This document shows, one piece after another, positions 12,565 to 63,999 of a DNA stretch of 64,000 nucleotides. Each line of letters begins with the position of its first letter. The first letter of the stretch is position 1. The notes under the pieces were generated by a model. That model worked only from the letters and a program-made list of their open reading frames with translations. It had not been told where the DNA came from and ran no database searches. The position numbers and the translations under genes are program-made. The stretch spans positions 151,565 to 215,564 of the forward strand of contig NZ_JAGHZZ010000007.1 in the NCBI RefSeq assembly GCF_017745095.1, read 5' to 3'. This DNA is from Sporocytophaga sp. (GTDB lineage Bacteria; Bacteroidota; Bacteroidia; Cytophagales; Cytophagaceae).

Positions 12565-13044
12565 TCAGGGTTCGAATTCAGAAGGACTATTAACTTCTTT
12601 CCAGACAAGAAAAGGTTTTTCAGCATCTGCGACTTTCAATTGTTGTAAGGGATACTGCCTTTGCTCATTTGATTTACCGACTTCAGTGTATATGTGGCTT
12701 ACACCGAACCCATGTAATGCTGCCTGTTCCAATGAAGATCCATAATAAACAGTTCTTATTCCTGAAATATAAATGGCAGCGAGACACATGGGACAAGGGT
12801 GACCGCTTGCATAAATTACGCAACCTTCCAGAAATTCTGAATTTAATCGGAAAGCAGCTTTCCTTATTGCTTGAATTTCGGCATGTGCTGTAGGATCATG
12901 AATGTGAAGTACATCATTTACCCCCTTAGCTAATACTTCTCCGTTCTTCACTATCAAAGCTGCGAAAGGTTTTCCATCATTTAAGCGAACATTTTCAATA
13001 GCTGAATCAATTGCTTCCTTTAAAAACTCTTCATTTGTTTTCAT
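12565..13044 (-). CDS. Zn-dependent nucleoside/guanine deaminase (cytidine deaminase fold)
   Basis: HAEIQAIR and PCPMC motifs; PFAALIVK.G.V. Confidence 0.9.
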   Translation of the reverse strand: MKTNEEFLKEAIDSAIENVRLNDGKPFAALIVKNGEVLAKGVNDVLHIHDPTAHAEIQAIRKAAFRLNSEFLEGCVIYASGHPCPMCLAAIYISGIRTVYYGSSLEQAALHGFGVSHIYTEVGKSNEQRQYPLQQLKVADAEKPFLVWKEVNSPSEFEP

Positions 13045-47159: not shown

Positions 47160-47513
47160 TTAAGACTGGCCTATGGGCTGGTTTACAGACTTACTATCTT
47201 TAGACTGAATTGAATTCAGTACCTCCTGAGTTACATCTTTTCCTCCCGTGATATTGGTATATAAAGCACCTATGCTATAAATAGGTCCCCAGGGAATCCC
47301 CCACCATCCCAAAAGAAATGTTAGTAATGTAAACCCAATACCATGTTTCACAGTTGACTCTCCAGGTTTAATAAAATACACATCACTTGAGCGTCTAAAA
47401 GTCATTACAACAATCGAAATGCAATATTGAAACACAACGAATTTTCCTCCATTGTTTAATTCTCTTTCAATATCACTGCCAGATAGTCCTTGAATGTTTT
47501 TGATGTTGGCCAT
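47160..47513 (-). CDS. Conserved hypothetical membrane protein
   Basis: GGKFVVFQYCIS..MTF.RSS.VYFI and LLGWWGIPWGPIY motifs. Confidence 0.75.
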   Translation of the reverse strand: MANIKNIQGLSGSDIERELNNGGKFVVFQYCISIVVMTFRRSSDVYFIKPGESTVKHGIGFTLLTFLLGWWGIPWGPIYSIGALYTNITGGKDVTQEVLNSIQSKDSKSVNQPIGQS

Positions 47514-47831
47514 ATTTATTTTTATTTTAAAAAGTTATTTACAAATATTGAAATTTAGAGAAACTAGAGTTTTGGTAAGAATGAGTATACTTAAAATATC
47601 TTGAATAGGTTAGAAAATTCCCATATACAAAATTTTTACTAGGTCAAACTCAGATTCAAAATCCTCCTGAATATGTAAAATTTCATTTACCATATTCACT
47701 ACCTAATGAAAAAATAACTTACTCAAAACTTTTTCGTACAGAAATTCCTATTGAGAATCTTAAAATTTGTATAACAAAATAATAAATAATATATAAAGGC
47801 AAAAATCTTCATATGAAAATGTAAATAAGAA

Positions 47832-47845
47832 TTTAAATCGGAATG
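47832..47845. repeat. Possible third, decayed copy of the tRNA-Lys downstream att sequence
   Basis: tttaaatcggaatg identical to 61697-61710 and 59112-59125. Confidence 0.35.
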
Positions 47846-48115
47846 AAAACCTTTTTAAAATCTATTCATACTTTTATATGAAGATTTAAGATAAACCTAA
47901 GAAATAAATCTATTTTCAGCTAACTTAACAAAGACATAAATTTTACAATATTGTATTCATTGGGATTCGTGCGGTAAAGACTACCTATAGTTAATTTTCT
48001 CTTGCAATATTTCCAAGCTTTAACACAAGCTATTCAACTCCTACATTCGACTGACTTTATTAAGCCCTTATATCATATTTTCTTTTATTCAGTTGGCCTT
48101 TATTAAAGCAAGTGA

Positions 48116-49495
48116 TTAATGACTAATAAGCGGTAAACCATTTTCTTCAGCATCAACACCCTGTCCATATTTTTCAACTATTTGGCTGAATGGTTTATTC
48201 GTGAATGCTACCTGGAAATACTCTGTTTCATACTCTCCATTGGAATGTTTCATGGCCTCATGTGCCTGATTCCATTTCTCATCAAAATCTTTGTTATGGC
48301 ACTTTCTAAGCTTTTTATAATTCTTATTTGCCATAGCCTTCATTGCCTCAGTGTCGCCAATCCTTCTTTCAGTAAAATGAGTAATAGCTTTGCCAATATC
48401 TCCACCAAATTCATCGATAAGATGAGCAAACACCCTAACACTTTCCATACAGGTATTCATACCCATAGCATAGAAAGGAGGCATAGCATGGGCCGCATCT
48501 CCTACCAGCAAGACCTGATCTTTAAAGTTCCAATTGGTGCATTTTATCTCAGAGATTTTAGATTCGGGATTGCTGTTGAACTCGGATATGAACTGCTCCT
48601 TATCAATAAATGAAAGGAACTGGCAGTTTTCCTGTACGAATTCAAACAACTTTTCATTATCCTTCAATTTATTTACTTCACAAGATTCTGTATAGAACAA
48701 AGTACCATTAAAGCCCTTCTTACCATCAGGCAGCGCAACGAACAATAGCTCGGCTATATTCCAAATGTGTACATAATTCGGATCCAATACATACTCACCG
48801 TTTCTCGGAGGTATATAAATCTCTTTGAATCTGTAGTCCAGAGTCGAAAGGGTTGCATCTACCAAACCCTGATCCACCAACCTTTGTCTAACACAAGAAA
48901 AAGTACCGTCGCAGCCAAATAAATATTCATATTTAACAACTCTTTCAGTGGTAGTATCTTGGCCCTCTATACTATAATTGGTATTTGTGATAAATGTAAT
49001 CTCCTTATCATCTACATTAATTCCTTCTAATTTATGTCCATAATAGAACTCTACATTACCTGTTTCCAAACAAGCGTCCATCAGGTAAAAATTAAAATGT
49101 TTTCTATTGACAGTATAAATGGCCTCTTTGTTAGCTCCATAATACTGAGGATATACCTGCCCGCTTCGTAAATGAACAGCACGTCCATATTTAGGCACCA
49201 GCAATGATTTGTAACTATCATACAAACCCAAATCTTTAAGAGTAGTAACTCCTCTTTCACTGATCGACATCCCTACTGTCCTTTTCTTAATTTCATTGTT
49301 ATTTATAAGGTTCATTCTTTTTTCATAAACCTGTACCTTATAACCCTTCTTCGCCAAATACAAAGCCAATGTACAACCACTAATGCCTGCACCAATAACT
49401 ACGACAGGCTTATTTTCTAAATAATCGATATTCGTTCCCACGCACTTAATTAATTTACTTATATATATAAGGCTAACAGGTGGACTGGCAGGCAC
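48116..49495 (-). CDS. FAD-dependent monooxygenase, divergent kynurenine 3-monooxygenase-like (start uncertain)
   Basis: VIGAGISG, RTVGMSISERG, GCDGTFSCVR, HIW, VGDAAHAMPPFYAMGMN align with KMO motifs RSINLALSxRG, GADGAFS, GDAAHAIVPFYGQGMN. Confidence 0.85.
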   Translation of the reverse strand: MPASPPVSLIYISKLIKCVGTNIDYLENKPVVVIGAGISGCTLALYLAKKGYKVQVYEKRMNLINNNEIKKRTVGMSISERGVTTLKDLGLYDSYKSLLVPKYGRAVHLRSGQVYPQYYGANKEAIYTVNRKHFNFYLMDACLETGNVEFYYGHKLEGINVDDKEITFITNTNYSIEGQDTTTERVVKYEYLFGCDGTFSCVRQRLVDQGLVDATLSTLDYRFKEIYIPPRNGEYVLDPNYVHIWNIAELLFVALPDGKKGFNGTLFYTESCEVNKLKDNEKLFEFVQENCQFLSFIDKEQFISEFNSNPESKISEIKCTNWNFKDQVLLVGDAAHAMPPFYAMGMNTCMESVRVFAHLIDEFGGDIGKAITHFTERRIGDTEAMKAMANKNYKKLRKCHNKDFDEKWNQAHEAMKHSNGEYETEYFQVAFTNKPFSQIVEKYGQGVDAEENGLPLISH

Positions 49496-55014: not shown

Positions 55015-58000
55015 GTGATAAAATTTCCAAATTAAAATTACCATATGAGCGTACTGGAAAAGATATCATTTCAGATAGCGCCTTATATGAAGAAATTTTA
55101 ATACCTAATACCATAATCAATTCACTAAAAAAATTTAGTAAAGAAAAAGATGTTACGTTCTTTATGACCTTCTTTAGTGCATTCCAATCCCTACTATATA
55201 AATATAGCCAAAACGAATTTATAAATACTGCAATTCCAATTGTAGATCGGGCTGATGCAGCAACAAAAAGACTAATTGGTTTTTTTGTAAACACTTTAAT
55301 TGTTCCCACTGATTTTTCCAAAGATGTTGCATTTGATGAATTGATAGAAGAAGTTAAACAAACATTATTAGAAGCTTTTCATCATCAAGATCTGCCATAT
55401 GAAATTCTTGCTAATGAATTAAGAAAGGAAACAGGAGCTGATGTAAATTCACTCATTCAAGTAATGTTTGCTTTTCAAAATGTACATGAAGATCCATTGC
55501 ATTTAACAGGAGTTAAAGCAGAGAATATTTTATTGAAAAATAAACATGCTAAGTTCGATCTTACAGTTTCTGTTTCCGAACAAGCAGAAGGTTATCTGGT
55601 ATCTGCAGAGTATAAATCTGATCTATTCCATTCTATTACAATAAAAAGAATGTTGAATTCATTCCATATGCTCTTAGAACAAGTAATGTCAAACCCTAAA
55701 ATCAAGTTATCTCAGATTGAAGTATTGAATCAATCGGTGAAAGAAGTCCTTACAAAAGTATGGAATGACACAAAAAGAAATCTTCCTGATTTTTCAGTAC
55801 ATGAATTATTTGAAAGACAAGTGTTCTCATCCCCGGATGCAATTGCACTAAATTGGAATGGCAAAAAAATCAGTTATAATGAATTAAATATTCGATCTAA
55901 TCATTTAGCACATTATCTTAAAAAACAAGGAATCTCTTCTGAAGAACTGGTAGGTATATTAATGGATGAATCGGAGTTTAGTATAATATCTCTGATTGCT
56001 GTTTTAAAGACAGGAGGTGCATACCTTCCTCTCGACCCTGCCTATCCAAAAGAAAGAATTGCTTATATGTTAAATGATTCAAAGGTTAAAACAATTATCA
56101 GTGAGAAAAAATATCTTGACTATCTTCCAGATTCTTCTTACCAATGGATTGTTTTGGATCAACTTGGTGAAGAATTAAGTAAAGAAAAAGATACCAATCC
56201 TGAAAGTAGAATACTTACCAATCATCTGGCCTATGTAATGTATACATCCGGTTCCACTGGTAATCCAAAAGGAGTTGGAGTAGAACATAAGAACATCATA
56301 AGGCTGGTGAAAAACACCAACTATGTTACATTAACAAGCAGCACTAAGCTATTAAAAACAGGCGCCTTTTCATTTGATGCATCAACATTTGAGGTATGGG
56401 GAATTTTATTGAACGGTGGTGAATTATTTGTATATCCAAAAGAAAATTTATTAGACCATCAATTGCTGAAAGAAAAGATAAAAGAGAATGGAATTTCTTT
56501 GATGTGGTTTACAGTATCCTGGTTTAATCAATTAGTAGATATAGATGTAGACATTTTTAAGCCTCTTCAATCAGTATTTGTTGGAGGCGATAAATTATCA
56601 GTGAAGCATATTAATAAAGTTAAACAAGCAATTCCTCACCTTGAAATAGTCAATGGATATGGGCCTACTGAAAACACAACTTTTTCTCTATATCATAAAA
56701 TAGAGCATACAAGTGAAGAAGACATTCCTATTGGTAAGCCAATCACGAATACCACCGTTTATATTTTGGACAAATCTCTTAATCTTCTTCCAATTGGAGT
56801 GCAAGGTGAAATTTATGTAGGAGGGAAAGGAGTTGCAAGAGGGTATATAAACGATGAAAAACGTACGCAAGAAAAATTCATTCCTGATCCATTTAGTTTT
56901 GAAGGAAGATTGTATAAGACCGGAGACCTTGGAAGATGGCTGGAAAATGGAACGATAGAATTTGGAGGAAGAAAAGACAATCAAATTAAACTTAGGGGAT
57001 ATAGAATAGAACTGGGAGAAATTGAAAATGCTATATCTAGCCATCCTCTGATAGAAGATTCTGTAGTGATTTTAAAAGATGACAATGGTGATAAAAAGAT
57101 TATAGGGTTTTATTTAAGCAATACGAATTTAACGGAAGCTGATGTAAAAACTTTTCTTAGAAAGACTCTTCCTGATTTTATGATACCTGTCTACCTGATC
57201 AAAAAGGAAAGCTTTCCATTAACTTCTAACGGAAAAATTAATCGTCAGGCATTAGCAAATAGTACTAAGAATTATATTAATGCAAACAAAACATTTGAGT
57301 TTGCCTTTAATGCAACAGAGGAAAAACTTGTGGCGATCTTTGAAGAGATTTTAGGAAGAGACGCTATCAGCATTACTGATAATTTCTTTGAATTAGGTGG
57401 ACATTCTCTTCTCGCTACAAAAGTAATGGCCAAAATTGAAAGGGAGTTTGGACAAAATTATCCATTGTCCATATTATTTGAAGCTCCTACTATTAAAGAG
57501 CTCAGTAAGGTTATAAAAGGAGATTCTGGAATTAAAAAAACAGGAATTATTCCTATACAACCTAAAGGAAATAAACCTCCGTTATTCTTATTGCCAGGAT
57601 ATTTATTCTATCATAATCTAGCAAAATATCTCGGAGAGGATCAGCCACTGTATGGATTTGAGCCATTAAATATAGACAGAACAGAAGAAGTTGCGGCTAT
57701 GTTTATAAAGCAAATGAAACAGATTCAGCCAACAGGCCCTTATTTCATTGGTGGATTTTGTGCCAGTGGAATCATCGCGTACGAAGTAGCTCAACAACTC
57801 ACTGCCGCAGGAGATGAGATTGGTCTGTTATCTTTATTTGAAGTTTATACTCCAGAAGCCACGGTTTCTAAGGCATCAAAGAAATATTTATCAGACAAGT
57901 TTGCTCATTGGAAGGCCGCATTCTCTTATAATTCTTTCAGAGCTAAGATAAAATTGATTTATAATGAATCTCAGAAACTCCTTCAATATTTCCTTCTTAA

Positions 58001-58265
58001 TCAATTTAGAAGTATGATAAGTGATTACAAGCTCAAACCATATGATGGAAAGATTGTATTGTTCAAAGCTTTAGATGAACTGGTAAGCTCATCTTCATCT
58101 GACCCTTACATGGGTTGGAATAGATACTGTTCAGCTCATAATATAACTTTGATTAAAATTCCAGGAAATCATAATACATTATTTAAAGAACCTTATATTG
58201 GTATTACTGCTGCGCAAATTAAAAAGTGTTTGGAAAATCAAAATTATCATGTTGAAGAAATTTGA
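54993..58265 (+). CDS. NRPS, 3' part (frame open from 54993; first ATG 55164): rest of C - A(Val-like) - T - TE
   Basis: YWRNKL..LKLPYER C-domain motif upstream of the called ATG; YTSGSTGNPKG, GGHSL, TE GGFCASG and GNH. Confidence 0.92.
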   Translation, partial: GYWRNKLSDKISKLKLPYERTGKDIISDSALYEEILIPNTIINSLKKFSKEKDVTFFMTFFSAFQSLLYKYSQNEFINTAIPIVDRADAATKRLIGFFVNTLIVPTDFSKDVAFDELIEEVKQTLLEAFHHQDLPYEILANELRKETGADVNSLIQVMFAFQNVHEDPLHLTGVKAENILLKNKHAKFDLTVSVSEQAEGYLVSAEYKSDLFHSITIKRMLNSFHMLLEQVMSNPKIKLSQIEVLNQSVKEVLTKVWNDTKRNLPDFSVHELFERQVFSSPDAIALNWNGKKISYNELNIRSNHLAHYLKKQGISSEELVGILMDESEFSIISLIAVLKTGGAYLPLDPAYPKERIAYMLNDSKVKTIISEKKYLDYLPDSSYQWIVLDQLGEELSKEKDTNPESRILTNHLAYVMYTSGSTGNPKGVGVEHKNIIRLVKNTNYVTLTSSTKLLKTGAFSFDASTFEVWGILLNGGELFVYPKENLLDHQLLKEKIKENGISLMWFTVSWFNQLVDIDVDIFKPLQSVFVGGDKLSVKHINKVKQAIPHLEIVNGYGPTENTTFSLYHKIEHTSEEDIPIGKPITNTTVYILDKSLNLLPIGVQGEIYVGGKGVARGYINDEKRTQEKFIPDPFSFEGRLYKTGDLGRWLENGTIEFGGRKDNQIKLRGYRIELGEIENAISSHPLIEDSVVILKDDNGDKKIIGFYLSNTNLTEADVKTFLRKTLPDFMIPVYLIKKESFPLTSNGKINRQALANSTKNYINANKTFEFAFNATEEKLVAIFEEILGRDAISITDNFFELGGHSLLATKVMAKIEREFGQNYPLSILFEAPTIKELSKVIKGDSGIKKTGIIPIQPKGNKPPLFLLPGYLFYHNLAKYLGEDQPLYGFEPLNIDRTEEVAAMFIKQMKQIQPTGPYFIGGFCASGIIAYEVAQQLTAAGDEIGLLSLFEVYTPEATVSKASKKYLSDKFAHWKAAFSYNSFRAKIKLIYNESQKLLQYFLLNQFRSMISDYKLKPYDGKIVLFKALDELVSSSSSDPYMGWNRYCSAHNITLIKIPGNHNTLFKEPYIGITAAQIKKCLENQNYHVEEI

Positions 58266-58394
58266 TTAAAATTTGATTGAAACAAGTTTAAGAAAGAGAG
58301 TTGTATTTGAATGAATGTTTGATTTAAATAACACTCTCTTTCTTTTATTATCTCTAATCCGAAGATTATACTCATTCCTTTACTTATTATTTCA

Positions 58395-59027
58395 ATGGAA
58401 ATATTTTATACTAAGTTCGAGGACAAACTGGATCATAAGAAATTGATTGCATACATAAGAACTCTTCCCCTTTCAATGAGAAAAGATATTTTTAAATTTA
58501 AAATGCCACTTGATATTCAAGGGCACCTATTTGGAAAAATTTTATTAAAAAAAATATTTGAAAATTATTACAATACTGAAAATATATTAAATCAGTTGGA
58601 ATATAATAAATATGGCCGTCCATACATTTCCAATTCAACCATAAATTTTAGCATTTCTCATTCTGAGCAATTTTCAGCAGTTGCAGTATCAAATGGGTTT
58701 CCGATAGGGATAGACATTGAAAAAATGAAAGAGATATCTTTCTGCGATTTTAAAACTTTATTTACAGAAAGTGAATGGAATGTAATTTTAACATCAGCCA
58801 ATCCTTTAAAAACATTTTATGTTTATTGGACCAAGAAAGAAAGTACAGCAAAGGCAGATGGAAGAGGTCTTTCCATTCCTTTAAATGAAATTTTAATTGA
58901 AGATGCTATTTCAATTTTAAATAAAAAACGGTGGCACTTATTTGAAATTAATTTAGAGCCTGACTATATGATTCATATTGCAAGTGAACAACAAGAATTG
59001 ATCAATATCCATAGGTTTACTTTTTAG
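58395..59027 (+). CDS. Sfp-type 4'-phosphopantetheinyl transferase
   Basis: YGRP, FSISHS, IGIDIE, FYVYWTKKES..KADGRG. Confidence 0.92.
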   Translation: MEIFYTKFEDKLDHKKLIAYIRTLPLSMRKDIFKFKMPLDIQGHLFGKILLKKIFENYYNTENILNQLEYNKYGRPYISNSTINFSISHSEQFSAVAVSNGFPIGIDIEKMKEISFCDFKTLFTESEWNVILTSANPLKTFYVYWTKKESTAKADGRGLSIPLNEILIEDAISILNKKRWHLFEINLEPDYMIHIASEQQELINIHRFTF

Positions 59028-59080
59028 ATTAAACACATAATTGGTTTTTGACCCTTAAGGAAACCTAAAAAGCTTTAACA

Positions 59081-59152
59081 AAAAATCCTCACATGTTATA
59101 CAAGTGAGGATTTTAAATCGGAATGTGAATCTCTTGGGACTTTCCTAGAACC
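59081..59152 (-). repeat. Displaced degenerate copy of the tRNA-Lys 3' end plus downstream spacer and terminator (attR-like)
   Basis: 36 bp (59094-59129) identical to 61679-61714; flanks continue with mismatches; contains perfect stem aaaatcctcac/gtgaggatttt. Confidence 0.88.
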
Positions 59153-59222
59153 TTTTAAGTTAAGACTTTTATATAACTCCATCCTCACTTTGTCAAGCTG
59201 TAGGATAGCTATCCAGAAGGTA

Positions 59223-60263
59223 TTAATTCTGAATTCTAAAACTTTCCTTCCATACTTTACCGCTTATGTCTTCTACCTCTATCCAATACCCGCCTTCTTT
59301 TGAGACGGTAATTGGAAGAGTTACTTTGGCTTTGGCTCCTAATGGAATGATCAAACTGTTTTTGCCTTTCTTCACTTTGGCAATGTAATAATTCTCAATG
59401 TCCCCATCAGGTATTTTGGAAAGCTCACTATACGAATACTCTTCTAATAATTCACCATTTTCATCTTTTAAAGAAATTCGTGTGATAAATGCACCATACG
59501 TATCAATACCCTGATCTCTGAACAGATCGAATCTAAGCCCTTTGACTTTGTCATACTTTGTTTCTGAAATTACAATATTAGGCTTCATAGATAGGTTATG
59601 AAGTTTTCCCCATACTCCTCCATGAAAGACTTGATTGGTATACAAAGTTATTATTAAAGAAAACATTGCGATGAATAAAGAAATGTATGTAAATATTCTA
59701 TTGCTAATGTTTATGTCACCAGACCCCATATATTTAAACCATTTTTTTTCTTTTAGTTTAGTAAGCCTTGAAAGCAAGAGTCTGTCTAAGGAAAACTTAT
59801 CTGCGCCAGCTACTATCATAATGAGTCCAGCTATGATACCAAAAGCCCCGATCTGCCATTCATCCAGGCACGTTGTTCCAAGCCATCCAGCACCAAACAA
59901 TATTCCAAAAGAGAGGAGAAACACTCCTAATGCTGAGGCTCGAGTAAATATCCCAAACAATAGCCCTAATCCAACCAGAGCTTCAATGATCGTAAATACG
60001 ATGAGGAATATCTGAAGGAAATCTGGATGAGTGATCATAAAATGAATCATAGGTTTAACGAATATAGCATTGGGGAAGAAGTGGTTAAACTTCTCACCAA
60101 CATAGCCGATTCCATCAGGATCTAATTTATTTTCCAGAATCAACCTTCTCCAGAATGCAGAGAAGAAGAGCCAGCCTGTAACCCATCTTAATCCCGTTAG
60201 CAAAACTGCTGAGGAGGACAATTGGTATTGAGAATTTTTATCTGAAATTTTAATTGTTTCCAT
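59223..60263 (-). CDS. doxD: Thiosulfate:quinone oxidoreductase, DoxD domain fused to DoxA-like domain
   Basis: LRWVTGWLFFSAFWRR..L..KL.P...GY.GEKFN.F.P; GWLG.TCLDEWQI; C-terminal GIDTYGAF...PLGAKA DoxA-like region. Confidence 0.85.
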   Translation of the reverse strand: METIKISDKNSQYQLSSSAVLLTGLRWVTGWLFFSAFWRRLILENKLDPDGIGYVGEKFNHFFPNAIFVKPMIHFMITHPDFLQIFLIVFTIIEALVGLGLLFGIFTRASALGVFLLSFGILFGAGWLGTTCLDEWQIGAFGIIAGLIMIVAGADKFSLDRLLLSRLTKLKEKKWFKYMGSGDINISNRIFTYISLFIAMFSLIITLYTNQVFHGGVWGKLHNLSMKPNIVISETKYDKVKGLRFDLFRDQGIDTYGAFITRISLKDENGELLEEYSYSELSKIPDGDIENYYIAKVKKGKNSLIIPLGAKAKVTLPITVSKEGGYWIEVEDISGKVWKESFRIQN

Positions 60264-60318
60264 TTCCGTTTTTCTTTTTAAGTGAAGGAATAATAAATAA
60301 GAATCGCATTTAATTTAA

Positions 60319-60780
60319 TTACAACTCGACGGTTTTATATCCATTCATTTGCAAATCAAACATGTAGGTTAGTCCATTCGGAACAATTTCAATTCCATTC
60401 ATTATTGTTAAAGGATCAATATTGAATTGTTGAAGAGACATTCCACAAATCTTAAATTGAATACCTGCAGCTTTCCCCTTCTGAATCAGTTCAGCAAATT
60501 CACTGCCTTTCACAAACGCTTCAACAGATTTGGCACAGGCCATGACTACTAAAGTTTCTCTTCTGTATTTGCTGTCCTTCGTTATCGACTCTGCTGTATT
60601 AACAACTGCCTTTATGTGATTAGGCTGACTGATAAGAATCGCATAGTTTAGTTTTTTTTTATCACTTAATATCGTGCTTTCATGTATAGGTCTGTAAATA
60701 AATGACGTATGCAATAATGAGATGCTGATTAATACATTCAGTACAATAGTTTTTACTTTATTTTTATCTTGTAAATTCAT
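60319..60780 (-). CDS. DsrE/DsrF-like protein with probable signal peptide
   Basis: VVMAC..SV, F.ICGMSL, IEIVPNG motifs. Confidence 0.75.
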   Translation of the reverse strand: MNLQDKNKVKTIVLNVLISISLLHTSFIYRPIHESTILSDKKKLNYAILISQPNHIKAVVNTAESITKDSKYRRETLVVMACAKSVEAFVKGSEFAELIQKGKAAGIQFKICGMSLQQFNIDPLTIMNGIEIVPNGLTYMFDLQMNGYKTVEL

Positions 60781-60943
60781 AGGATATTTAATTAGTTAGA
60801 TTTTATAATCGACATAGTTATCCCAAGGCCTTCATTTAGAATGAGGTCAGAGTATAACAAGTGAAAAATTTTACAGAGTAATATTGACAGGATATAACAA
60901 TCCCCATTACATCGTAATAATAATATCAGTCTTGATTTATAAC

Positions 60944-61297
60944 TTAATTAAAACAGGGAGGAGGAGAATGAATGTTACTGCAGCAAGAGTAATCAGTAAC
61001 TTTGTAAACCTGATGATGACTAATCAGCTTTGATGATATCATTAAAAATTCGTTATGCTGAATAATATGTATATCAGCAGAACAAATAGTTATAAGCTTC
61101 TTATTTGACTTTTTTTGCTTATCTGATAAACTTGATTTTCCTGAAGAGGATATTTTAAATTGTTTATTCTTTCTGCCATACTTGCACTTCTTTTTAAATT
61201 CATAGATACTATCATTACTATTAAATACAGAAAGCGCATATACCGTCTGATTTAACAGATAAATGAACAGAAACAAAAATGTAAGTAGGCGTTTCAT
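60944..61297 (-). CDS. Hypothetical small exported protein
   Basis: 117-aa ORF with hydrophobic N-terminus and HSPP end typical of small Bacteroidota proteins. Confidence 0.5.
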   Translation of the reverse strand: MKRLLTFLFLFIYLLNQTVYALSVFNSNDSIYEFKKKCKYGRKNKQFKISSSGKSSLSDKQKKSNKKLITICSADIHIIQHNEFLMISSKLISHHQVYKVTDYSCCSNIHSPPPCFN

Positions 61298-61665
61298 TCA
61301 ATCCCTAACGCTATATTAATTAAAATAATTTTGGAACTGCACTAAAAAAAGTAGACAAAACAATAAGCATTTTTAATAACAAATAATTTAGCATTACATT
61401 TATATAATATTAATTATTTGATAATCATAAACATTCACTCTTAAGATAAATAACAAACAATAGCCACAATAAAGTGCGGATATCATTTCATTTACTTCAA
61501 CTAAAGTAGCTTCTTCTTAACCAATATTCAATTGCCCCAGTGAAGTATACTTACATATATATAAATTCTGATTTTTTGAAAAAATGAAATCTAAACCTAC
61601 TGGATAAAAATCGACACTTAAAAAACAAGGACTTGTGACAACAAACTGTTTATTCAATAGCAAAA

Positions 61666-61739
61666 AAAAATCCCCACCTGTTATACAAGTGAGGATTTTA
61701 AATCGGAATGTGAACCCGCTGGGATTCGAACCCAGGACC
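61666..61739 (-). repeat. attL-like copy: tRNA-Lys 3' end, spacer and terminator
   Basis: See 59081-59152; the stem has a U:G pair on the minus strand, consistent with terminating tRNA transcription. Confidence 0.88.
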
Positions 61740-61783
61740 CCTACATTAAAAGTGTAATGCTCTACCAGCTGAGCTACGGATTC
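61711..61783 (-). tRNA. trnK: tRNA-Lys (anticodon UUU), CCA not encoded
   Basis: GAATCCG/CGGGTTC acceptor stem, TAGCTCAGCTGGTAGAGC D arm, TTACA-CTTTTAA-TGTAG anticodon arm, GGTTCGAATCC T loop. Confidence 0.97.
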
Positions 61784-61861
61784 TTGTTTTTTTTTGCCTT
61801 TTCGAAATCGTTTTCCGTAAATGCGATGCAAAAGTATAAGCTTTTTTTATATTTGCAAAAC

Positions 61862-62623
61862 ATGAAGCGAATTTTATTTACAATACTTGCTGTTTTTTTT
61901 CTAACTCCTCTCGCCTTCTGCGCTAATTACGCTGATTCCCTGAAGCTTGCAGATTCGTTATTCAATGAAAAAAAATATCCACAATCCTATAGTATCTATT
62001 CTGGCATACTTACTTCTACTGAAAAGTTTTCCCCAAGAATGCTTCTCAAAATGGCTATGATTAAAGAACAGGAAGGTGATTATACCATGGCTCTTTATTA
62101 TCTAAACCTCCTCTATAAATACCAGCCAGATAAAAGAGTGCTTGAAAAAATGGATGAACTGGCATCTGCTCATCAGCTTACTGGTTATACATTTACTGAT
62201 TTGGAGTACTTTATTTCTCTTTACAACCAGTATTACTATTACATCATCTTCTTCTTCCTTATCGTATCTGCAATTATCTATCTGTATCTTATTTTCAAAA
62301 AGTTTTATAGCAAAAGACTAGGTTTACGTCCTCTCTTCTTCGTTTTTGTATTATCCTTTGCCTACATTCTTACCAATTATGATATCGTTCCTATGAAGGG
62401 AATCATAAGTCAGGACCATTCCTACTTAATGAGCGGCCCTTCCGCAGGTGCTGATCCTGTAGCTGAAATAGAAAAAGGTCACCGTGTTATAGTATGGTCA
62501 GAAGATGATGTTTGGTATAGAATCAGCTGGAATGGAGAATTTGTTTATATCAAAAAAAATCATCTCCTGTTAGTAGGAGACGAAAATCATTTAAGCGGTG
62601 AATCTTTCTCTTTTGATATATGA
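61862..62623 (+). CDS. Exported TPR-like / SH3b-domain membrane protein (start reassigned to MKRILF)
   Basis: Signal peptide; helical N-region; two TM segments; LMSGPSAGA..V..I.KGHRV.V....DVWY.I SH3-like end. Confidence 0.75.
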   Translation: MKRILFTILAVFFLTPLAFCANYADSLKLADSLFNEKKYPQSYSIYSGILTSTEKFSPRMLLKMAMIKEQEGDYTMALYYLNLLYKYQPDKRVLEKMDELASAHQLTGYTFTDLEYFISLYNQYYYYIIFFFLIVSAIIYLYLIFKKFYSKRLGLRPLFFVFVLSFAYILTNYDIVPMKGIISQDHSYLMSGPSAGADPVAEIEKGHRVIVWSEDDVWYRISWNGEFVYIKKNHLLLVGDENHLSGESFSFDI

Positions 62624-63393
62624 TTGAAGACTACTCTATCAACAAGACCGGGAAAAAATTTCTTAAGAAAGATGGTTGATTTACCTTGTGAGGTCAATAC
62701 AAGATCTCTCTTTCTTTGCTCAACAGCTTTGTAGATGCTTGCAGCAACTTCTTCCGCACTCATCATCTTACCTTCATCCATTGATGATTCTCCAATGATA
62801 CTTCCGTCCTTAGACAAAGATGTATTCCTGATATTGGAAGTCGTAAAGCCCGGACAAGCCACCAGCACATGCACATTTTTATTCAGGAGTTCTACACGTA
62901 GTGCTTCCAGAAAGCCATTCATAGCAAATTTAGACGCGCTGTAACCCGTTCTACCCGGAAGGCCTACACTACCAGCTATAGAAGAAACGCCTACCACAGA
63001 GCCTTTATTTTTGATAATTTCAGGCAATGCATACTTTGTAGCATAAACAGTTCCGTAAAAATTAATATCCATTACCTTTTTCAATACACTCAAATCTGCA
63101 TCTGTGAATAAAGCTCTCATCGATATACCTGCATTGTTAATAAGTATATCTATCCTTCCAAAAACTTTAATCGTCTCTTTGACGAGCATTTCGTTATCTT
63201 CCTCCATAGCCGAATCCGCTTGTATAGACAATACCGGGATTCCTTTACTTCTAAGCAATAATGCAGTTTCTTCAAGGTTCACCTTATTTCTTCCAGTTAT
63301 GACAATCTTTGCTCCCTTGCTTCCAAACTCCTCTGCGCAAGCCTTGCCAATTCCTGAGGATCCTCCTGTGATTATAACTACTTTATCTTTCAT
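62587..63393 (-). CDS. Short-chain dehydrogenase/reductase
   Basis: TGGSSGIG, NNAG, YSASK motifs. Confidence 0.95.
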   Translation of the reverse strand: MKDKVVIITGGSSGIGKACAEEFGSKGAKIVITGRNKVNLEETALLLRSKGIPVLSIQADSAMEEDNEMLVKETIKVFGRIDILINNAGISMRALFTDADLSVLKKVMDINFYGTVYATKYALPEIIKNKGSVVGVSSIAGSVGLPGRTGYSASKFAMNGFLEALRVELLNKNVHVLVACPGFTTSNIRNTSLSKDGSIIGESSMDEGKMMSAEEVAASIYKAVEQRKRDLVLTSQGKSTIFLKKFFPGLVDRVVFNHISKEKDSPLK

Positions 63394-63405
63394 GAATATT
63401 AAATT

Positions 63406-63999
63406 TTAATGTTCTTCTGATTTATTTATCCGCGTCTTAAAATACTTTGCAACAGCATGTATAAGATTGGAATGCCCGGCGGTAAGTACTTCTAATTTAT
63501 AATTATTCAGATTACGAAGAAAATACTTCATATTCTTCAGATTAATAATTTTGTCGTAAGTCCCTAAAAAGAGTTCCAGCTCTATCTTGTTGTCGTTAAG
63601 GATAACTGCAACCTTCTTAGTATTGAACTTTAGATCTCTGAATACTATCCAGGAAAAATACACCCTTCTCCTCTGCTCCCTGGTAATCATTTGGGTATTT
63701 GCAAACCGGTGGAGGCCTTTATCAAGTAGCTTAAACCTGTTTAAGGTATTTACCACATTATGATAGATTCGAGGCTTTACAATGGTTCTTTTAAATATTC
63801 CTTGAAGAAGGGTCGGGTAAGTGGCAATATTGTACCAGAAGCTCGTTTTGATCCCATCCGGAGCTATCAGAATAACCTTATCAATCTTTGAATAAAAATA
63901 CTCCAGGGTTGAAAGTACAAACTTTCCTCCCATGCTAAAACCTAGCAGGCTGAACCTTTCTATTTGCTGACTTTCCAGAAACCCGGCAAAAAATTCATT
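63406..63999 (-). CDS. Alpha/beta hydrolase, 5' end outside the window
   Basis: The frame extends upstream of the called ATG giving RFSLLGFSMGG (GxSxG); G.YD.II and AGH C-terminal motifs. Confidence 0.85.
   Translation of the reverse strand, partial: NEFFAGFLESQQIERFSLLGFSMGGKFVLSTLEYFYSKIDKVILIAPDGIKTSFWYNIATYPTLLQGIFKRTIVKPRIYHNVVNTLNRFKLLDKGLHRFANTQMITREQRRRVYFSWIVFRDLKFNTKKVAVILNDNKIELELFLGTYDKIINLKNMKYFLRNLNNYKLEVLTAGHSNLIHAVAKYFKTRINKSEEH

Follow-up and report, generated by a model that had tools for sequence, protein, structure and literature searches.

How did a doxDA gene and its two companions come to lie between two copies of the 3' end of a tRNA-Lys gene, beside a nonribosomal peptide synthetase (NRPS) cluster? 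The locus belongs to a stretch of 64,000 nucleotides from Sporocytophaga sp. (contig NZ_JAGHZZ010000007.1, positions 151,565 to 215,564 of the forward strand), referred to here as the window. We hold, with moderate confidence, that a tandem array of small cassettes without integrases has been built up downstream of tRNA-Lys(UUU) in a Sporocytophaga clade, and that the DNA at 59130-61661 is one of these cassettes. The locus is an ordinary decayed mobile-element hot spot, neatly organised. An earlier reading made from the letters of the window (the sequence-only reading) had proposed an islet without an integrase, left by one old insertion whose empty site should be found in relatives. There is indeed no recombinase among the open reading frames (ORFs) of the cargo; the single insertion gives way to a multi-cassette array, with six related genomes carrying five different cassettes between copies of one junction unit.

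Two 63-nt direct repeats, 89% identical and 2585 bp apart from start to start, enclose the cargo. Copy 1 (c1) is distal and copy 2 (c2) lies against the tRNA gene (Table 1). Both contain a perfect 36-nt core (59094-59129 = 61679-61714), which occurs exactly twice in the window and not once in any of 100 shuffles. Read as a whole, c2 consists of the last 15 nt of tRNA-Lys, a 10-nt spacer and the terminator hairpin of the tRNA; the core spans the last 5 nt of the tRNA, the spacer, and the loop with one arm of the hairpin, and the arm outside it differs at two positions between c1 and c2. The spacing of about 2.58 kb and the perfect core reported before are thus correct, and the statement that the core covers the whole terminator is not. 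An intact tRNA-Lys gene adjoins c2, as in an insertion at a tRNA 3' end with the tRNA restored, and both the coordinates and the non-random core support the proposal that the repeats are att-type duplicates of the tRNA 3' end and its terminator. In c1 the tRNA-like part has diverged beyond GTGAA (TCTCTTGGGA versus CCCGCTGGGA). The likeness to the tRNA stops after about 15 nt, and a full pseudo-tRNA at c1 is ruled out, given that the extended alignment scores below shuffled controls. An Rfam scan found tRNA as the sole family, its sub-threshold NsiR1 matches being terminator look-alikes.

Comparison with related loci delimits the DNA that is specific to the window. Loci L001 and L002 (two Sporocytophaga-type metagenome-assembled genomes), L007, L008, L009 and L011 were located through a conserved SH3/TPR gene to the right of the tRNA, and L013/L014, L015 and L017 through the gene for a 4'-phosphopantetheinyl transferase (PPTase), with which the NRPS cluster ends. 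Homology of the window with L001, L002, L013 and L015 runs across the NRPS cluster and the PPTase gene at 82-90% nucleotide identity, ends at 59130-59146, restarts at 61662 and continues to the right at 86-87%. Since homology stops at the inner edges of the repeats, the window-specific DNA is the stretch between those edges. In place of doxDA, all five NRPS-bearing relatives carry an SDR gene (255-262 aa), behind which four of them have a 189-aa cyclic nucleoside monophosphate (cNMP)-binding regulator; the fifth, L017, is a short contig that ends inside the SDR-like ORF and shows the left unit copy and the start of that ORF, with no regulator. The SDR cassettes, with or without regulator, have a diverged unit copy (cL) on the PPTase side and, where the contig reaches, another copy on the tRNA side. 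More cassettes are found at the same locus. In L001 a middle copy (cM) and the copy next to the tRNA (cR) enclose a cassette with a 161-aa ORF; 326 nt of this cassette survive behind cM in L015, and L002 has a single unit copy at its position. L002 (one copy) and L001/L015 (two copies) form an empty-versus-filled pair for this neighbouring cassette. In L013 a cassette with a 250-aa ORF lies between cM and the tRNA, and in L007/L012, which are without the NRPS cluster, the next feature after the hairpin is an unrelated gene for a secreted protein. The 161-aa and 250-aa ORFs had no informative match in PADLOC, PHROGs or NCBIfam. The sequence-only reading had named relatives that lack doxD and dsrE and still have both repeat copies as evidence against an integration; literally such relatives exist, but other cassettes lie between their copies.

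We aligned 15 copies of the junction unit from the window and its relatives. They share an A-run, a hairpin ATCCTCAC ... GTGAGGAT, a spacer TTTAAATCGGAA and then TGTGAACC. Beyond TGTGAACC, tRNA-proximal copies run on as tRNA and distal copies share a derived arm, CTTGGGAC.AT.CTTCGAAC TTTTTATATGAAG, which is present in c1, in a third, decayed copy of the window (c3), and in cL and cM of L013. Given that the distal copies are alike where they differ from the tRNA, the arm looks like a common element arm and not like the outcome of independent tRNA decay. The 250-aa cassette of L013 is instructive in this respect. Its two junctions share only the 8-nt TGTGAACC, with unrelated sequence on either side, and its tRNA-proximal hairpin is a diverged homologue of the usual one (GCTCAC/GTGAGC). 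Judged by this layout, the L013 junctions are the classical signature of a site-specific crossover at a tRNA 3' end. The unit was seen at no place other than the tRNA-Lys locus in the 64-kb window and in related loci totalling about 200 kb. A 22-mer of the unit matched one contig in a metagenome collection, L012, which is from the same organism as L007, and nothing in a viral collection; c1 with its arm had no blastn match among plasmids and phages. Three matches of a 17-mer of the arm in the viral collection were rejected as chance, all of them being without hairpin or spacer context.

An independent sample shows the same left junction. In an unrelated rhizosphere metagenome (X3), a contig about 94% identical to the window spans the PPTase gene, c1 and doxDA, and this contiguity means that the arrangement is common to a second lineage. 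Its 36-nt core is unchanged, and the adjacent 3' region of the PPTase gene differs by about 11%. The X3 variants at 59093 and 59130 are the states of L013 cM and of c2, so that c1 and c2 were originally identical over about 42 nt. Two PPTase homologues of S. myxococcoides (P0243, P0244) were not placed on contigs.

The hybrid structure of several copies allows the history of the array to be read. A tree built from the last 3.3 kb of the NRPS/PPTase region (W, window) has the form ((L001,(W,L013)),(L017,(L002,L015))), with all forks fully supported. From this topology it follows that the SDR-regulator cassette is ancestral and was lost in the window lineage. The left flank of c1 is orthologous to the PPTase-side (cL) flank of the relatives, and its loop, spacer and 39-nt right arm match L013 cM (89% over 92 nt). 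By these matches c1 is a recombinant, and it marks the loss of the ancestral SDR-regulator cassette. Likewise, the single copy of L002 combines the left flank of cM with the loop and spacer of cR; on the same kind of match, this hybrid records that the 161-aa cassette, found in both major clades, was lost here. A third event concerns the tRNA itself. In close relatives tRNA-Lys(UUU) is encoded twice in tandem, by identical genes that are separated by about 95 nt and have different terminators (L001 9684-9923; L002 9683-9922; L007 2139-2381), and the single tRNA-Lys of the window has the upstream flank of their first copy and the downstream flank of the second. It looks like a pair merged into one by recombination between the tRNA copies, a third deletion of that type. 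Collapse of the pair during assembly was considered and rejected: in X1, a run of the source sample, the unitig at 61685-61770 is unbroken, and no X1 contig covers the inter-tRNA spacer of L001. No circular form of the cassette was found and no joint of an excised form appears in the contigs of the runs, a result limited by the k=31 unitigs, which cannot tell an integrated from an excised form across a 36-nt repeat; the core is a unitig of its own at double depth. The turnover of a tRNA-linked hot spot in a soil Bacteroidota lineage, gain as well as loss, becomes readable from hybrid junctions of this kind.

Separately, the X1 unitig to the right of the tRNA (61751-63500) has a depth of 19.4, about twice that of the unitigs to the left (8-11.5; 57500-61700). 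A second strain sharing only the right flank would explain this step.

What keeps the distal hairpins intact? The hairpin of c1 has 11 perfect Watson-Crick pairs, one U.U mismatch and three further pairs, and folds at -16 to -17 kcal/mol on either strand (z about -5.4 to -6). As minus-strand RNA, c1 folds at -17 kcal/mol and is followed by the tail UUUUUUGUU, and c2 folds at -19.7 kcal/mol and is followed by nine U (z for c1/c2 about -5.4 to -6.2); a terminator scan lists c2. The minus strand of c1 and c2 has the stable, GC-containing hairpin and the U-run of a predicted intrinsic (Rho-independent) terminator. On the plus strand of c1 only four U follow the stem. A stable fold is found in all 15 copies compared; c3 apart, minus-strand RNA folds at -15 to -20 and plus-strand RNA at -4 to -17 kcal/mol. 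In each of the 15 copies the minus strand gives the more stable fold or one about as stable. The strands differ since several stem positions form G.U pairs only in minus-strand RNA. Across these copies 94% of the stem cells pair, and one pair runs A-U, G-U, G-C. The pattern supports selection on the hairpins for ending transcription of the minus-strand genes, those of the cassettes as well as the tRNA, and bears out the earlier suggestion that the displaced hairpin was kept as a terminator. The PPTase gene and doxDA converge across c1, as the sequence-only reading had it, and since c1 folds equally well on both strands, its hairpin could also be the stop for the PPTase transcript. A duplicated att site that doubles as a conserved terminator would be an integration scar taken over for gene expression.

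Taken as a mechanism, the array would grow and shrink as follows. Each junction unit comprises the hairpin of the intrinsic terminator behind the tRNA, then the 10-nt spacer and 5-8 nt from the tRNA 3' end (core TGTGAACC); distal units also have the common pseudo-tRNA arm of about 40-60 nt. In a gain, a tyrosine-type integrase, lost since or encoded elsewhere, would recombine a circular element with the tRNA 3' end, the attP of the element imitating hairpin, spacer, core and arm. The hairpin brought in by the cassette would become the new terminator of the tRNA, and the old tRNA terminator would be pushed outward, where it would end the last gene of the cassette (here doxDA) and probably the convergent PPTase gene too. 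In a loss, as the comparison shows, neighbouring hairpin copies recombine and remove cassettes; at least two were lost in this way.

Did the doxDA block itself enter by such a route? Several observations weigh against it. No integrase, excisionase or attP-bearing element was found in the window regions, in the cassettes of relatives or in the plasmid, phage and viral collections searched. None of the relatives offers an empty site for the doxDA cassette, as they hold other cassettes there, and the GC content of the cargo is like that of its flanks. Cargo and arm meet on the left (59165-59168) within the coding part of a dsrE remnant, where a few A/T-rich bases belong to both, and for that reason this junction resembles illegitimate joining and not a clean element end. 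The c1 arm could simply be orthologous to that of L013: c1 with its arm is 89% identical to L013 cM and the flanking NRPS genes are 88-90% identical, which fits vertical descent of the arm. Both cassette deletions crossed over within the hairpin, in the A-run or the left stem and not in the core; from their position, the losses look like ordinary homologous recombination between short direct repeats, not like integrase action.

Much of this is what a different account would build on, in which the repeats are older, pre-existing cassette boundaries and the doxDA block never integrated site-specifically. It would have been inserted by illegitimate or short-homology recombination, for instance after uptake of DNA from other Cytophagaceae, replacing an earlier cargo. 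The A/T microhomology at the dsrE junction is the main point for this account, and the c1 arm, which is shorter than the arms of L013 and c3, its apparent vertical descent and the crossovers in the hairpin agree with it. Random replacement does not predict, however, that the right boundary falls exactly at a full hairpin-spacer copy near-identical to c1 (52/54 positions, counting the X3 variants), nor does it predict the same end structure in several unrelated cassettes. Weighing both sides, we regard illegitimate joining as possible and, on the whole, unlikely.

The opposite extreme would be a dedicated tRNA-Lys cassette system, in which a trans-acting recombinase, from elsewhere in the genome or from a helper element, stacks promoter-bearing mini-cassettes. 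Were this so, terminator hairpin, spacer, core TGTGAACC and about 60 nt of arm would form the conserved cassette ends, the tRNA would receive a fresh terminator with every insertion while the incoming genes took over its previous one, and the whole would amount to an integron-like gene-capture device on a tRNA gene, able to hold an entire NRPS cluster of 11 kb. We consider a dedicated system doubtful indeed. As regards mobility genes at large, there is no recombinase among the ORFs of the 59-62 kb and 40-51 kb regions or of the relatives' cassettes, no relaxase or recombinase family matches any of the three cargo ORFs, and no fragment of an integrase or conjugation gene is present in the window cassette or any related one, the dsrE remnant being the only gene stump.

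The two tandem, identical tRNA-Lys genes of the relatives invite a further explanation, by which a former tandem array of tRNA-Lys genes, each with its terminator, would have decayed into the distal copies, with unrelated genes inserted between them. The likeness of c1 to the tRNA, however, ends after some 15 nt with the rest scoring below shuffled controls, the two tandem tRNAs of the relatives have different terminators, and the distal copies share a derived arm that is unlike tRNA; this origin is very improbable. Hardly credible is the view that the repeat is a generic terminator family of the genome or a chance similarity, unlinked to integration: the hairpin is an ordinary terminator of A-run, GC stem and T-run, and relatives have a terminator of similar style behind their upstream tandem tRNA (GATCCTCTG...CAGAGGATC), but the 36-mer is matched in 0/100 shuffles, the unit is confined to the tRNA-Lys locus in the window and related loci and its 22-mer to one metagenome contig and zero viral ones, and the similarity takes in the non-hairpin spacer and the tRNA end.

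We return to the cassette in a tandem array, which is the reading we prefer, and ask to which known systems it is closest. Cis-mobilizable elements (CIMEs) and their tandem accretion at att sites have been described for ICESt1-type elements of Streptococcus thermophilus and for tRNA-Lys islands of streptococci (PMC5704250), together with a three-step scheme of accretion in which new arrivals enter beside the target gene and push older ones outward. Like a CIME, the window cassette has attL- and attR-like direct repeats of the target 3' end on its two sides and is without integration or transfer genes; as in CIME accretion, several units are stacked at one site. The variation between strains starts exactly at the inner edges of the repeats. 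The host here, a member of the Cytophagales (Bacteroidota), belongs to a different phylum, the cassettes are very small, of 0.6-2.5 kb with one to three genes, and have no decayed integrase or conjugation traces, and, unlike in CIMEs, the repeated unit contains a whole conserved intrinsic terminator. A partner integrative and conjugative or integrative and mobilizable element is not known here. Even so, CIME-like remnants with tandem accretion at tRNA genes are the closest known kind, and the locus is nothing new in kind.

Other systems are more distant. Tycheposons of Prochlorococcus carry a tyrosine recombinase and often a replication module, and their excision has been shown by PCR (10.1101/2020.12.28.424599). 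Their islands resemble the present locus in being tRNA-adjacent, in that successive integrations push older material inward to the island, and in their partial tRNAs, degraded remnants and mostly integrase-less content; unlike in tycheposons, no recombinase or replication gene was found here, and the host is an unrelated soil bacterium. For Dehalococcoides, vcrABC is reported to lie in a horizontally acquired, site-specific island at ssrA (the tmRNA gene), by a mechanism common in the genus (PMC3146451). The trait in common is metabolic genes at a gene for a small stable RNA, and target gene and phylum differ. Small, co-oriented cassettes that each end in an imperfect-palindrome site also recall integron cassettes, in layout only. 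Unlike in integrons, there is no IntI near the array and no attI, the array is anchored at a tRNA gene, and every cassette leaves space for a promoter of its own; inspection of the unit by eye shows GTTATAC and CTTTAAC, neither of which agrees with the integron boxes RYYYAAC/GTTRRRY. No integrase stands beside either junction, as it would in a tRNA island of the tyrosine-integrase type.

Table 1. Features of the tRNA-Lys locus and its surroundings in the window.
Feature	Position	Strand	Remarks
Copy 3 (c3), decayed, with arm, hairpin lost	47801-47898		Far end of NRPS cluster
PPTase, last gene of NRPS cluster	58395-59027	+	Pfam ACPS, AASDHPPT_N; orthologous in L001, L002, L013, L015, L017
Copy 1 (c1), distal, attL-like	59077-59139		A-run, hairpin 59082-59114, spacer, GTGAA, diverged tRNA-like part
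Element-side arm, pseudo-tRNA 3' part common to distal copies, shortened by cargo junction	59130-59168		59077-59168 is 89% identical to L013 12391-12482
30-nt remnant, 3' end of second dsrE (117 aa in relatives)	59165-59194	-	93% identical to L003 9360-9390, likewise in L004, L005
DoxD-DoxA fusion (DoxDA), 346 aa, thiosulfate:quinone oxidoreductase-type membrane protein	59223-60263	-	Pfam DoxD 7e-46, DoxA 2.4e-39
DsrE-like protein, 153 aa	60319-60780	-	Pfam DsrE 2.4e-5, above gathering score; syntenic with 152-155 aa DsrE in L005, L016
Conserved Cys-rich ORF, 117 aa, signal-peptide-like N-terminus	60944-61297	-	61% identical to same-position 117-aa ORF of L005 sulfur cluster
AT-rich right end of cassette, 25-31% GC	61298-61661		Presumed promoter/leader region of cargo
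Copy 2 (c2), tRNA-proximal, attR-like	61662-61724		Hairpin 61667-61699, spacer, true tRNA 3' end; predicted to terminate tRNA-Lys transcript
tRNA-Lys(UUU), intact, single	61710-61783	-	ARAGORN; Rfam 70.8 bits

Where does the cargo come from? The block 59229-61350 is 72-79% identical in nucleotide sequence to a block in the sulfur-metabolism clusters of other Cytophagaceae, in which the order is ArsR-type regulator, TauE, persulfide dioxygenase-rhodanese, YeeE-type transporters, methyltransferase, ORF117, DsrE (152 aa), DoxDA and DsrE (117 aa). The nearest DoxDA homologues are 75-84% identical and located in such clusters, the closest (84%) being that of L016, in a normal DsrE-DoxDA-next-ORF context; against the NCBIfam model TQO_large_DoxD the window protein scores below the family cutoff. 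In L003, L004 and L005 the second dsrE directly follows doxDA, and in the window all of that gene except its 3' remnant is deleted. The remnant sits between the doxDA stop codon and the arm; cargo and arm join inside it, 10 nt short of the dsrE stop codon, and overlap there by a few A/T bases. Because of this remnant we take the cassette to have once held four genes, the last now mostly deleted. Judged by homology and gene order, the cargo is a decayed four-gene fragment (ORF117, DsrE, DoxDA, dsrE stump) of a Cytophagaceae sulfur-oxidation operon, cut off from the regulator, the persulfide dioxygenase and the transporters of its source. That this fragment and the NRPS cluster are separate cassettes accounts for the position of orphan sulfur genes beside the cluster, and doxDA and dsrE should not be counted among the biosynthetic genes. 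In the right end, 61351-61661 (311 nt) has no blast match in any fetched locus, and the full Bacteroidetes -7 box TAnnTTTG is absent from 61298-61661. The 117-aa ORF of the cargo belongs to no Pfam, NCBIfam, PHROG or PADLOC family.

Two observations concern the sulfur genes elsewhere. Cytophagaceae sulfur clusters with DoxDA and DsrE also encode a small Cys-rich protein of 117-118 aa that has a signal-peptide-like start and the conserved C-terminus IHSPPPCF (L005 6975-7328; L003 7231-7587). In L003 (6337-9400) and also L004, from more distant Cytophagaceae, an ORF118-DoxDA-DsrE block is located immediately downstream of a tRNA array, Ser-Pro-Arg-Pro-Arg, in which Pro-Arg is duplicated in tandem. 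This is a second tRNA-adjacent location of these sulfur genes. An apparent tRNA match beside doxDA in L003 proved to be tRNA-Arg and tRNA-Pro genes and not tRNA-Lys.

The third unit copy lies well away from the other two. Compared with the middle copy and arm of L013, c3 is 79% identical over 71 nt (E 2e-8). Its motif match is weak, 18 nt with two mismatches at 47835-47852, three such matches being present in the window against 0.21 expected, and its fold is merely -5 kcal/mol. It may be a further cassette boundary inside what was read as one NRPS cluster. A kynurenine-monooxygenase-like gene sits just inside c3 in the window, and in L015 (1-1441) such a gene lies on the opposite side of a conserved 117-aa ORF from its place in the window (47160-47513; 48116-49495). 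That 117-aa ORF, at 47160-47513, was compared with the 117-aa ORF of the cargo and rejected as a paralogue.

Some further sequence elements accompany the array. Just upstream of the gene for the cNMP-binding regulator there is a palindrome, TTTACCATTTGGTAAA (L001 8955-8975; L002 9555-9575; L013 12310-12325), which is likely the autoregulatory operator of that gene. A motif CCCCCAGA(TT/AA)TTCCGATTGATCC stands 40-60 nt outside the hairpin in L013 (12349-12369), L008 (108-129) and L015 (about 12670-12696) and is absent from the window copies. To the right of the tRNA, the SH3/TPR gene (61862-62623, plus strand) and an SDR gene (62587-63393, minus strand) overlap tail to tail by 37 nt (62587-62623), and they do so likewise in L001, L002 and L009.

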